A DNA stretch of 17,295 nucleotides from a virus (taxonomy: Duplodnaviria > Heunggongvirae > Uroviricota > Caudoviricetes): the IMG/VR virus record IMGVR_UViG_3300037067_027627. One strand, 5' to 3'. Below, piece after piece: positions 11,720 to 17,190 of this stretch. Position 1 is the first letter of the stretch. The number at the start of each line of letters is the position of its first letter. The notes beneath the pieces are model-generated. The model searched no databases. It was not told the DNA's origin and worked only from the letters and a program-made list of their open reading frames with translations. Position numbers and translations under genes: made by a program.

Positions 11720-11791
11720 TGCGGTTACTGGGAGTTGAACCCAGTCCGGTTGCTTGGAGGGCAACAATGCTGCCACTTACACTTTAACCGC
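11720..11791 (-). tRNA. trnG: tRNA-Gly(UCC) with atypical A8 and C33
   Basis: Acceptor GCGGTTA/TAACCGC. Anticodon arm GTTGC-CCTCCAA-GCAAC. T arm CTGGG-TTCAACT-CCCAG. Confidence 0.85.
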
Positions 11792-12542: not shown

Positions 12543-12612
12543 TGGGGATGAAGGGAGTTGAACCCTCATCACAAATTTTGGAGACTTGCTTCCTACCGTT
12601 GGAGACATCCCC
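12543..12612 (-). tRNA. trnW: tRNA-Trp(CCA)
   Basis: Acceptor GGGGATG/CATCCCC. Anticodon arm CAAGT-CTCCAAA-ATTTG. T-loop TTCAACT. G1 is the last base of the pth2 TAG. Confidence 0.85.
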
Positions 12613-13004
12613 TACAATAGTTTCAGATCTTTCGTAAGCTCGTTGAGTTTTATGCACTTCGGATCATTCACCGGAAGTGGTTCGAACCCTGCGCAAGTGA
12701 TCGTGCCGGGTTCAAGTTGTGTAAGACCTGCATCAGTTATAATGCGGAAACCAATTTCGGATTCGTTTGCTTTAGATGTGATTTCTTTGAGTTCTGCAAG
12801 ATCTTTAACTTTAAGCACTATCTTGCGCATTCCGTTGCACCGCCACATCTCTTTGTTCGCGGATGCGCCTTTTATGAACCCCTCTACGGATGCATGCGCA
12901 ACCTGAACTGTCTTCTTTCCGCAATCGATCCCGAGATCAGATCGTATAATGATCACTTGTTTGTAGGTTTGTATATCTTCTTTCTTCGGTAGTGTGTCTT
13001 CCAT
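12612..13004 (-). CDS. pth2: Peptidyl-tRNA hydrolase, Pth2 (archaeal/eukaryotic) family
   Basis: YKQVIIIRSDL, GKKTVQVAHAS, KIVLKV, DAGLTQLEPGTITCAG, with the catalytic K, D and T positions retained. AGGAGA SD. Confidence 0.93.
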   Translation of the reverse strand: MEDTLPKKEDIQTYKQVIIIRSDLGIDCGKKTVQVAHASVEGFIKGASANKEMWRCNGMRKIVLKVKDLAELKEITSKANESEIGFRIITDAGLTQLEPGTITCAGFEPLPVNDPKCIKLNELTKDLKLL

Positions 13005-13093: not shown

Positions 13094-13164
13094 TACACCC
13101 GGGCGGAATCGAACCACCCCCGCGACCTTGTAAGGGTCGAATACTACCAATATACTACGGGTGT
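13094..13164 (-). tRNA. trnV: tRNA-Val(UAC)
   Basis: Acceptor ACACCCG/CGGGTGT. Anticodon arm CGACC-CTTACAA-GGTCG. T-loop TTCGATT. Confidence 0.93.
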
Positions 13165-13480: not shown

Positions 13481-14206
13481 TCATTTCTTTTCAGTTGTAG
13501 GTTTCAACCACAACGCCTCGTCATCTCCAAGAACTGACACCGCCAGCCCCGGGTAAATGCAGAGTACTCGTAAAGATTCGATTGTTGAATACTTAAACAT
13601 TTTCGTTAATTCGTCGCGTTTTCGGTCTACCGACACGTTGTTCCGTAACATTTCCAGATATCGCGCATTTTTTAGGATGTCGCTGATATCTGCGTGTATT
13701 CGCATATCCTTAGTTACCGAGAACCTAACCGCACGTAACATTCGCAAGGAATCCTCTGTCATTCGTTTACGAGGGTTTCCTACGCACCTGATAATTCCCC
13801 GTTCTATATCGCGGATACCATTGAACGGATCGTAATATTCGGTTTCTATGTCCGGATACACCATCTTGGCAATTGCATTCATTGTGAAATCCCGCCGCGA
13901 AAGATCGTCGGTAATTGTGCCTACATCGACACGATCTGGTCTGCGTCCATCAGAATATCCATACTCTTTACGGCACAGGACGAAATCTGCGTCTCCTTTC
14001 CATCCGTTCAGATTATCTATGTGTGCACGAATTGTAAAGAATTCCGGGTCTTCTTTGAATATTCGTCCCCGCGCAAGGATAAAATCGCGCATTGATTCAT
14101 AGCTATCTGCTTCTACCGAAAAATCTACATCGTTGTTCGGGACTCCAAGTAATTCATCCCTGATTACGCCACCTACCATGTAGACACTGTATATTGTAGG
14201 TTCCAT
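13481..14206 (-). CDS. cca: Compact class II tRNA nucleotidyltransferase (CCA-adding enzyme)
   Basis: VGGVIRDELLG..DVDF, flexible loop CRKEYGYSDGRRP, DLSRRDFTMNAIA, DPFNG, EDSLRMLRAVRF. The ATG at 14206 is preferred over the track's TTG at 14215 (TATA about 23 nt upstream). Confidence 0.9.
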   Translation of the reverse strand: MEPTIYSVYMVGGVIRDELLGVPNNDVDFSVEADSYESMRDFILARGRIFKEDPEFFTIRAHIDNLNGWKGDADFVLCRKEYGYSDGRRPDRVDVGTITDDLSRRDFTMNAIAKMVYPDIETEYYDPFNGIRDIERGIIRCVGNPRKRMTEDSLRMLRAVRFSVTKDMRIHADISDILKNARYLEMLRNNVSVDRKRDELTKMFKYSTIESLRVLCIYPGLAVSVLGDDEALWLKPTTEKK

Positions 14207-14228
14207 TATATACAATGGGAGGAACAGA

Positions 14229-14273: not shown

Positions 14274-15341
14274 ATGGCGTGGATGTATGGTAAACCGTGT
14301 ATATTAACGGATCTTGGGTTTGAAGGGCAATCTCCAGACGGAACCGCACGACCCGGCGCTGACATGGAGTTTTTTGTTGGCTTCGACGAGGTAACCGCAG
14401 GATGTGACAATCTTGGATATTGTAACCCGGGTGCAGATATTGTATGGTCGGTAAGTGGATCACTTAGCATGCCAAATACGCAACATATCGGGCTGCAATA
14501 TTCAGAGCGATGCGGGCATTGTGACACGTTCCGTCTTATAGCTCCAAACTCTGGTACGTTCACGGTCACTGCAAAAAGCGCAAATACAATAACTTGGGTT
14601 GTAACTGTATCTTCTGTAGACATTAGCGCGGGCCAGATCAAGGTTTCTTACGTAAGGTGCGCAAATCAGGAAGAATCTGTTGCTGCGTCATCTCCAAACT
14701 GTATGTGCAATGGCAGTAACTTAACTCTCTATTTCACATCTACGCCAACATCTGTTGGAAACGGGATGGCATATTACGACGTATATGTGAACGGATCTCC
14801 ATATGCTGAGAATCAGGTAGAATCGACTTACGACACCCACCGTGATAGCGTCACCATTAGCTGTCCTCCTGCCGGATCTACTATAACAATCAAAGGCAAG
14901 AACGATTCCGGGTCATCGATTGTTGTTTATGAAGAATCAAATAACCCAATCATTCCAGTGGGTCAATATACATGCGACGATAGCCAATTAACATGTGTCA
15001 ATGGCCGGAATTTGTCATGGTGTTCGTATGCAAACGGAAACGGAAGCTGGGTAGACAATGGTATGGGAAACTGTGGTACAACTACAACTTCTTCGTTCCC
15101 GATATGTGCAACTCCGTGTTCTGACGATTACTGCGATAGTGCCGGAAATCATTATACATGCTACGGAGGATGCGCGACTCTCGATGGAACCAGATGCACC
15201 CCGACAACGACTTCATCCGAAGTAACAACTACTACAACGGGCGATCTCATGTCACGGATAAAAACATTTTATGAGAACAATAAAACAATGTCGATCGTAG
15301 GGATTGCGCTTCTCGGCGGTCTCATGCTGACGCGCAAGTAA
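14274..15341 (+). CDS. 355-aa Cys-rich surface/virion protein with Thr-rich linker and C-terminal membrane anchor
   Basis: 19 Cys by my count, 7 N-x-S/T sequons and Thr tracts. Ends IVGIALLGGLMLTRK. No N-terminal signal peptide visible. Confidence 0.8.
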   Translation: MAWMYGKPCILTDLGFEGQSPDGTARPGADMEFFVGFDEVTAGCDNLGYCNPGADIVWSVSGSLSMPNTQHIGLQYSERCGHCDTFRLIAPNSGTFTVTAKSANTITWVVTVSSVDISAGQIKVSYVRCANQEESVAASSPNCMCNGSNLTLYFTSTPTSVGNGMAYYDVYVNGSPYAENQVESTYDTHRDSVTISCPPAGSTITIKGKNDSGSSIVVYEESNNPIIPVGQYTCDDSQLTCVNGRNLSWCSYANGNGSWVDNGMGNCGTTTTSSFPICATPCSDDYCDSAGNHYTCYGGCATLDGTRCTPTTTSSEVTTTTTGDLMSRIKTFYENNKTMSIVGIALLGGLMLTRK

Positions 15342-16121: not shown

Positions 16122-16195
16122 TTCTGCCGCCGGGATTTGAACCCGAACCGCCGGATCGAAAGTCCAGCATCACTTGCCGATTAGACTACGGCAGA
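16122..16195 (-). tRNA. trnE: tRNA-Glu(UUC)
   Basis: Acceptor TCTGCCG/CGGCAGA. Anticodon arm CTGGA-CTTTCGA-TCCGG. T-loop TTCAAAT. Confidence 0.9.
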
Positions 16196-16267
16196 TACGC
16201 GCAGGAGGAATTGAACCTCCATATAAGCCTTATAAGGACTCCCTACTCACCATTGTAGTATGCGCGC
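16196..16267 (-). tRNA. trnI: tRNA-Ile(UAU)
   Basis: Acceptor GCGCGCA/TGCGCGT. D stem CTAC/GTAG. Anticodon arm GAGTC-CTTATAA-GGCTT. T arm GGAGG-TTCAATT-CCTCC. Confidence 0.88.
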
Positions 16268-16278
16268 AAGATATTATT

Positions 16279-16627: not shown

Positions 16628-16698
16628 TACACCCAGACGGTAACGCTCCGTCGTATCCCGGATGTCAACCGGGTATTCTTCTTTTGAATCATGGGTGT
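16628..16698 (-). tRNA. Non-canonical tRNA-Val(GAC) lacking D-loop GG and T-loop TTC
   Basis: ACACCCA TG ATTC AAAAGAA GAAT A CCCGG TTGACAT CCGGG ATAC GACGG AGCGTTA CCGTC TGGGTGT A. All 21 stem pairs are Watson-Crick with canonical spacing. Confidence 0.8.
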
Positions 16699-17096
16699 TC
16701 TATTGTATTAAGTATTTGATTCCACGACATATTAAAGTATTTCATTGCCCAATGGATTGGCTTGTGGCATGGAAGGCAAACCCGCACAAACTCTTCCGGA
16801 TGCTTAAACACGTATTCTTTCCCTTTTGGGTGTTTTATGCCATTTTTCCTGTGGCAGATCAGATACTGGTTCGATTTGCATATCGCGCATTTACTTCCAA
16901 CAAGTCTGTCTATTTCCGAATCTACGAATTTTCTATGTTCTTTGTTACTCTTTCGTCTACTCGCAAGGTTGCGTGTTCGTCTTTCTTCTGGTGTCAACTT
17001 CGGGGCATTCACAATTTTTGTCGGAATCCCCTTATGTTTTCTTCTAGCCCACTCACGCTGATAATTCGTGTTTTTCGTTTTATCTTTGAATGGCAT
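16689..17096 (-). CDS. HNH-like Zn-binding endonuclease with basic N-terminal region
   Basis: CAIC..LICH..VCLPCHKPIH. The residue usually Asn before the second CxxC is not evident, so activity is uncertain. Confidence 0.65.
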   Translation of the reverse strand: MPFKDKTKNTNYQREWARRKHKGIPTKIVNAPKLTPEERRTRNLASRRKSNKEHRKFVDSEIDRLVGSKCAICKSNQYLICHRKNGIKHPKGKEYVFKHPEEFVRVCLPCHKPIHWAMKYFNMSWNQILNTIEHP

Positions 17097-17099
17097 GTA

Positions 17100-17190
17100 A
17101 GCCGGACGAGGGATTCGAACCCCCTAACTCCGCATTTCCTGTCATGTTATGATTACAGGTGCGGTGCGGCTCCAATGCCGCCTGTCCGGC
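17100..17190 (-). tRNA. trnT: tRNA-Thr(UGU) with 18-nt intron at 37/38; atypical A8, C33 and 5-bp D stem
   Basis: Acceptor GCCGGAC/GTCCGGC with U73. Anticodon stem CCGCA/TGCGG. Spliced loop CCTGTAA. T-loop TTCGAAT. Confidence 0.82.
17136..17153 (-). other. Archaeal BHB tRNA intron (ATCATAACATGACAGGAA)
   Basis: Central helix CCTG/CAGG flanked by 3-nt bulges TAA and AAA. Intron stem TCAT/ATGA. Confidence 0.85.

Follow-up and report, generated by a model that had tools for sequence, protein, structure and literature searches.

The tRNA-Val(GAC) gene

The window, by which we mean the whole stretch of 17,295 nucleotides of viral DNA analysed here, contains about 15 tRNAs, and a search with a covariance model described below showed that just one of them, a 71-nucleotide tRNA-Val(GAC) on the minus strand, has a variant elbow and that there is no second such tRNA in the window. 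The positions of this gene, its parts and the neighbouring features are collected in Table 1.

Table 1. Features at and around the tRNA-Val(GAC) gene (window coordinates)
Feature	Position	Strand	Evidence or remark
tRNA-Val(GAC) gene, 71 nt, no encoded CCA, variant elbow	16628..16698	-	cloverleaf, RF00005, model R1, orthologue in L131/L123
Acceptor stem, 5' strand ACACCCA	16692..16698	-	paired with 16629-16635; discriminator A73 = 16628
D loop AAAAGAA = A14 A15 A16 A18 G19 A20 A21	16679..16685	-	
Anticodon loop UUGACAU with U33, GAC (16664-16666) and A37	16662..16668	-	same in orthologue
T loop AGCGUUA = A54 G55 C56 G57 U58 U59 A60	16641..16647	-	
tRNA-Val(UAC), canonical elbow, partner isoacceptor with the same first 6 acceptor bp	13094..13164	-	ARAGORN, Rfam
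135-aa HNH-like ORF between tRNA-Thr and tRNA-Val(GAC)	16689..17096	-	absent in L131/L123
tRNA-Thr(UGU) homologue with 18-nt anticodon-loop insertion	17101..17190	-	alignment with intron-less L131 10255-10328

Read from 16698 to 16628, the gene has an acceptor stem of seven pairs (ACACCCA/TGGGTGT) followed by T8 and G9, a D stem of four pairs (ATTC/GAAT) followed by A26, an anticodon stem of five pairs (CCCGG/CCGGG), the variable loop ATAC, and a T stem of five pairs (GACGG/CCGTC) whose loop is closed by G52-C62 and G53-C61. These are the stem lengths (7/4/5/5) and spacers of a canonical tRNA, and all 21 pairs are Watson-Crick. The minimum free energy fold is exactly the cloverleaf (-26.3 kcal/mol, z -3.4), and none of 200 shuffled sequences equals it. 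A scan of both strands of the whole window for cloverleaves, based on stems and spacing and ignoring the sequence of the loops, returned the known tRNAs and this candidate, nothing else, and the candidate had the best stems of all. When the window was shuffled 60 times with its dinucleotide composition preserved, no shuffle gave a cloverleaf of 21 pairs and two gave one of 20. Given the outcome of the scan and the absence of 21 pairs in any shuffle, the candidate is a real gene and not a chance structure; the original prediction of a 71-nucleotide cloverleaf with perfect 7+4+5+5 stems, U8, A73 and a GAC loop is thus borne out by the scan, the fold and the shuffles. The one terminator-like match of the region lies on the plus strand, where it corresponds to the complement of the anticodon arm, and such matches are as numerous as expected by chance; a terminator was therefore rejected.

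ValRS of E. coli recognizes A35, C36 and the discriminator A73. All three are present in the candidate sequence, which also has acceptor pairs 1 to 6 and A73 in common with tRNA-Val(UAC), the acceptor likeness that had been claimed for it. Compared with the canonical tRNA of Rfam model RF00005, it has the same stem and loop lengths and the same U8, A14, G19, A21, U33, A37, G53-C61, C56 and A73, but it differs by A18, A54, G55 and U58, and also by A15 (D-loop positions follow the usual numbering for a loop of 7 nucleotides).

A rebuilt elbow

In the usual teaching, G18-Psi55 and T54-A58 count as near-universal contacts of tRNA. The candidate has A18/G55 in place of G18/U55 and A54/U58 in place of U54/A58, so that of the usual elbow set (G18 G19 in the D loop; U54 U55 C56 A58 in the T loop) G19 and C56 are what remains. 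The gene had been described as "elbow-less", with both halves of the conserved elbow replaced. The second part of this description holds for G18, U54, U55 and A58, but not for G19 in the D loop and C56 in the T loop, and the first part has to be abandoned: G19:C56 is retained, and the swaps at the two remaining contacts are coordinated, a pattern found, as covariation, across hundreds of tRNAs.

This covariation was measured on 541 unique cloverleaves, found without regard to loop sequence in 884 kb of viral DNA. Position 55 follows the D loop closely: U55 accompanies GG in 345 cloverleaves and G55 accompanies AG in 144, while the mixed states amount to 7 for G55 with GG and 0 for U55 with AG (C56 kept). 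Fisher's exact test gives 1e-117 for this association, and 1e-84 after removal of the tRNAs that had been search targets. Positions 54 and 58 behave likewise (U-A 390, A-U 104, A-A 9, U-U 1; Fisher 5e-96). The covariation indicates that the swapped combinations are the marks of tertiary contacts that have been preserved. Other covarying combinations occur as well. Some phage tRNAs swap G19:C56 for A19:U56, about 20 of them (among loci L001-L037 and L244-L307) having U56 together with a D loop without GG; at the same loci, 20 phage tRNAs carry G54/G58 T loops and 20 combine A54/U58 with canonical G18/U55.

Outside tRNA, most T-loops have the sequence YGNRA, in which position 2 is a G and an adenosine intercalates (bioRxiv 10.1101/2022.12.26.521914). 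Because position-2 G and intercalating A go together in these non-tRNA motifs, A18/G55 would be the general T-loop solution, used here in a tRNA. In the T-loops of the FMN and cobalamin riboswitches, the position-2 G and the adenosine inserted between positions 4 and 5 resemble G55 and A18 (same source). A Y-A pair closes these riboswitch loops; in the candidate the closing pair is A-U and the loop is set in a tRNA elbow with G19:C56, in a geometry that we deduce from the sequence. The L-shape would then be held by a rebuilt elbow, consisting of the conserved G19:C56, an A18-G55 contact and an inverted A54-U58 closing pair.

Other tRNAs depart from the canonical elbow. The staphylococcal non-proteinogenic tRNA-Gly is without G18 and T-Psi-C and truly lacks the elbow signature, G19:C56 being lost and/or the loops shortened and the arm lengths altered. 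The same is true of tRNA-Pyl and type II mitochondrial tRNAs (PMC7609411). The comparison with these three groups, made in the original prediction, is apt as far as the loss of the G18 and T-Psi-C motifs goes; the likeness is a loose one, however, as the candidate keeps G19:C56 and all canonical loop and stem lengths. The literature searched, in which subscription journals are thinly covered, yielded no account of an elbow that combines A18/G55 with A54/U58, which falls short of proof that none exists; such an elbow is also missing from a 2020 review of non-canonical tRNAs.

A class of variant-elbow tRNAs in viruses and metagenomes

The candidate belongs to a class of tRNAs defined by A18 G19 in the place of GG and by a T loop A-G-C-G-U seated on G52-C62 and G53-C61. 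These two pairs are invariant in the class, and its D loops are mostly AAAAG(U/C/A)A. A covariance model (R1) was built from 23 gap-free members of the class, taken from other contigs and bearing ten anticodons, with the candidate and its orthologues left out. In the underlying alignment, 98.6% of the cells are paired and 19 of the 21 pairs show changes on both sides. The candidate scores 80.9 bits against this model (E 3.6e-20), to be compared with at most 42.7 bits for the canonical tRNAs of the window.

Searching IMG/VR for the 17-nucleotide T arm gave matches in 33 contigs; about 29 of these matches lie in tRNA genes, which serve a wide range of amino acids and whose D loops conform to A(A/G)AAG(U/C)A. 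A pattern in which the three loops were fixed and the stems left free found 4 viral and at least 120 metagenome matches, where a handful would be expected by chance. Among the matches listed, 40 of the 42 unique metagenome or viral sequences form perfect cloverleaves whose stems differ considerably from one another, and almost every one has A73 and, after it, an encoded CCA; the other two (L099 and L155) are chance or coding matches and not tRNAs. Viral contigs contain 62 unique tRNAs with the AGCGUUA loop, as many as five of them at one locus; between them they account for 20 anticodons and 15 amino acids, and CCA is encoded in 36.

Four variant-elbow tRNA-Val(GAC) from IMG/VR and the metagenomes (L035, L034, L116 and L089) begin with A1-U72 and have an acceptor of the form A-C/G-N-C-C-C. 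This unusual start and acceptor pattern is common to these four and to the two Val tRNAs of the window. The likeness may reflect a related viral lineage or a common requirement of ValRS.

Neither the region nor the tRNA had a meaningful BLAST match among cultured and GenBank phages, the anticodon arm plus T stem of the candidate had no exact match in IMG/VR, and a search for relatives with the protein encoded at 14274-15341 found none. For a tRNA-Asp of the class, the only BLAST match was an unannotated 642-kb record of an uncultured phage.

The same elbow in bacterial genomes

Applied to cellular genomes, the loops-only pattern gave 45 matches, 42 of which are real tRNA genes, all with CCA; the remaining three (L186, L198 and L201) are chance or coding matches. 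All but one of these genes lie in Pelagibacteraceae and uncultured gut Alphaproteobacteria, the exception being in a Thalassotalea genome (L171). The tRNA-Val(GAC) of the Pelagibacteraceae and gut Alphaproteobacteria has the anticodon loop, A73 and T loop of the candidate (AGCGUUA; AGCGUAA in the genome G174, considered below) and a D loop of the same type (AAAAGUA; AAUAGUA in G174). It differs from the viral tRNA by an encoded CCA and a G1-C72 start, where the latter has no CCA and A1-U72, and all stem sequences are different.

G174 is a closed Pelagibacteraceae genome of 1,200,090 bp, in which all 33 Rfam tRNA matches were examined. Its sole tRNA-Val(GAC) carries the double swap (D loop AAUAGUA, T loop AGCGUAA), as does its sole tRNA-His(GUG) (G174:C1:205065-205135, locus L323), which has the same D and T loops and no G-1, and which ARAGORN did not report when run on the fetched locus. 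The sole tRNA-Phe(GAA) has the single A18/G55 swap (loops AGGAGUA and UGCGAAU). In a second genome, the sole Val and Phe tRNAs likewise have the variant elbow. Since single-copy tRNAs for these codons must decode, the variant elbow evidently does not prevent a tRNA from being processed, charged and used by the ribosome, in those bacteria at least. Model R1 found a match in 2 of 151 sampled Alphaproteobacteria and in 10 of 41 sampled Pelagibacteraceae, both lower bounds given the strict filters and the inclusion of incomplete genomes; the distribution of the trait among the sampled bacteria is patchy.

An orthologue with compensatory changes

The metagenome scan with the loops-only pattern also supplied the orthologues of the gene. 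One contig (L070) is the same virus, identical over 1371 nucleotides. Two others (L123 and L131) represent a syntenic relative, in which the proteins encoded nearby share 50-69% identity with those of the window and the tRNA is 89% identical to the candidate, with differences at 8 of the 71 positions. Two pairs have undergone compensatory double changes (30:40 from G-C to C-G; 50:64 from A-U to C-G), one pair a single change (10:25, from A-U to G-U), and the remaining differences fall at the unpaired positions 9, 20 and 45. No pair is broken, and the sequence flanking the tRNA cannot be aligned between the window and L131/L123. The homologues with compensatory stem changes that the original prediction had proposed to look for thus exist, and its argument that intact stems speak against random decay gains from the comparison: the stems are kept where the flanks have diverged beyond alignment, the opposite of stems decaying as fast as loops. 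These observations support the view that the candidate is under selection.

The neighbouring ORF and tRNA genes

In L131/L123, tRNA-Val lies about 4 nucleotides downstream of tRNA-Thr(UGU). In the window, the two are separated by the 135-residue ORF, which starts 4 nucleotides past tRNA-Thr and whose last codons and TGA stop coincide with tRNA-Val positions 1-10. The stop itself occupies positions 8-10, where the orthologue has TTG (9 and 10 differ). Profile searches of this ORF against Pfam and PHROG gave no match; it contains Cys-x2-Cys motifs, and the Atlas clusters closest to it consist of viral HNH endonucleases, with a score of 0.93 that is to be taken as a lead only. Because the relatives carry the tRNA directly after tRNA-Thr with no ORF in between, this gene order indicates that tRNA-Val(GAC) is older than the inserted ORF, which argues against its being a mere processing signal for the mRNA of the ORF. 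In addition, since the 5' end of the tRNA lies within the ORF, excision of the tRNA from a joint transcript would strip the ORF of its last two codons and its stop.

The tRNA-Thr(UGU) of the window has features of its own. The intron-less version in L131 is detected by ARAGORN; the window version is missed by ARAGORN and lies below the Rfam gathering score, with only a weak match to the tRNA-Sec model. The 3' part of its 18-nucleotide insertion can pair with the anticodon region (CCUGU/ACAGG), in the manner of archaeal-type tRNA introns. Both versions have C33, as against the near-universal U33. Two genes for enzymes of tRNA metabolism lie on the minus strand within the runs of tRNAs: a tRNA nucleotidyltransferase of 244 residues (13481-14215), of which the PolyA_pol head domain alone was matched, and a PTH2-type peptidyl-tRNA hydrolase (12612-13004).

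Detection by tRNA scanners

ARAGORN reports 12 tRNAs in the window and Rfam 13, and the candidate is in neither list; Rfam also failed to report it from 846 nucleotides at E<=10. Both runs of Rfam used the default speed filters of Infernal. On a slice of 106 nucleotides, for which these filters are lax, RF00005 gives the candidate 47.3 bits, well over the cut-off of 29. The covariance model thus accepts the gene, and it is the sequence-based speed filters, with their reliance on the conserved loops, that drop it. The suspicion that standard scanners may miss this tRNA was therefore justified for ARAGORN and for Rfam with default filters. The difficulty extends to the class: at 101 viral loci, ARAGORN recovered 98% of the canonical cloverleaves, against 48% where the T loop begins AGCGU.

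Discrepancies between programs also concern other tRNAs of the window. A canonical tRNA at 11720-11791 on the minus strand, whose anticodon loop CCUCCAA corresponds to Gly UCC, is found by Rfam (50.8 bits) and by the loop-blind scan and is missed by ARAGORN. The latter program overlaps tRNA-Glu(UUC) (16122-16195) and tRNA-Ile(UAU) (16194-16268), both on the minus strand, by 2 nucleotides; Rfam places tRNA-Ile at 16196-16267, directly abutting tRNA-Glu.

Function of the variant tRNA

Conservation, membership of the class and the existence of sole-copy bacterial counterparts all point to the candidate being, very probably, a working elongator tRNA-Val(GAC) of the virus that reads GUU and GUC. 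This was among the possibilities put forward in the original prediction, and it emerges as the most likely. The tRNA would be co-transcribed with the adjacent minus-strand tRNAs and excised by RNase P and a 3' tRNase. None of the tRNAs of the window has an encoded CCA, which would be added by the CCA-adding enzyme of the virus itself or by that of the host. ValRS would charge the product by way of A35, C36 and A73, and the tRNA would decode GUU and GUC, leaving GUA and GUG to tRNA-Val(UAC). In the genes of the window, GUU (116) and GUC (38) make up 154 of the 355 valine codons (43%). The evidence for function in translation comes from bacteria, and the host of this virus may be archaeal. The overlap with the HNH-like ORF, whose mRNA would be shortened by excision of the tRNA, also weighs against this reading.

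A working tRNA could nonetheless owe its unusual elbow to something other than decoding. Elbow-modifying enzymes act on G18, U54, U55 and A58. The G19:C56 face serves as the stacking surface for RNase P, the L1 stalk of the ribosome and further factors. All the normally modified elbow positions are altered in the candidate, and the stacking face is kept, a combination that would suit an adaptation of a functional tRNA, whether to escape elbow modification (the enzyme specificities are reviewed in PMC7912444), to escape nucleases or toxins, or to be marked for viral enzymes. Such a purpose would add to the working-tRNA explanation and would not replace it; we regard it as unlikely, and give the same low credence to the elbow being a selected mark of stealth or orthogonality. 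One may speculate that a viral tRNA of this kind escapes host modification, surveillance or nucleases, or is favoured by enzymes of the virus such as its short CCA-adding enzyme, and a CCA-adding enzyme of 244 residues is indeed encoded beside the tRNAs of the window. The frequency of the class in phage tRNA arrays, where it spans 20 anticodons, also speaks for an adaptation, as does the ability of phage tRNAs to counter tRNA-targeting defences through anticodon-loop changes or abundance (PMC11555353; van den Berg et al. 2023, cited therein). Those tRNAs resemble the candidate in being encoded by viruses and in deviating from host tRNAs, but in PMC11555353 neither the T loop nor the elbow figures as a site that is cut or recognized and no role is reported for the elbow, and the elbow of the candidate is likewise without a link to defence. 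Moreover, one of the approximately 15 tRNAs of the window is concerned, and the same elbow occurs in sole-copy chromosomal tRNAs of free-living bacteria, so no conflict is needed to explain it. The candidate is the only variant-elbow tRNA of its array and, for this reason, may still have a special role.

The position of the tRNA at the end of the HNH-like ORF raises another possibility, namely that it is a t-element, a signal for RNase P or RNase Z that ends or releases the HNH-like mRNA with no part in decoding. The ORF does end inside the tRNA structure. This reading is improbable to a greater degree than that of an adaptation, as L131/L123 keep the tRNA directly after tRNA-Thr with no ORF to serve; the anticodon arm is complete and conserved (U33, GAC, A37), which does not fit a t-element; the acceptor and A73 match the viral tRNA-Val(UAC); and relatives in the class encode CCA.

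Two readings have very little in their favour. A decaying pseudogene with drifted loops might lack G18, U54 and U55 and be missed by ARAGORN and filtered Rfam, as the candidate is, but hardly with the best stems in the window, and this reading is contradicted by the compensatory changes of the orthologue and by loops that match a recurrent class so well as to score 80.9 bits against a model built without the candidate. Equally implausible is a decoy or a non-ribosomal amino-acid donor comparable to the staphylococcal cell-wall tRNA-Gly, both of which had been entertained in the original prediction: the resemblance goes no deeper than the missing GG and T-Psi-C motifs, with G19:C56 and normal loop sizes retained, no tRNA-dependent transferase was seen among the scanned ORFs of the window, and the same kind of elbow is found in sole-copy decoding tRNAs, the only Val(GAC), His(GUG) and Phe(GAA) genes of the closed Pelagibacteraceae genome.

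Significance

Four points are new here. The proposed working tRNA-Val(GAC) is an instance of the variant elbow in a possibly archaeal virus; compensatory changes distinguish it from its orthologue; it is accepted as a tRNA by the Rfam model; and closed-genome evidence shows tRNAs with this elbow as sole isoacceptors. Given the losses in ARAGORN and in the Infernal filters, viral tRNA repertoires, and some bacterial ones too, are under-counted, about half of the variant-elbow tRNAs escaping ARAGORN. If the swap were truly an anti-host adaptation, it would represent a new route of immune evasion at the level of tRNA, which is speculation at present. In tRNAs that are competent for translation, the near-universal G18-Psi55 and T54-A58 appear to have been replaced jointly by A18-G55 and A54-U58. 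These tRNAs thus offer a natural test case of what RNase P, CCA-adding enzymes, elongation factors, the ribosome and the elbow-modifying enzymes need.
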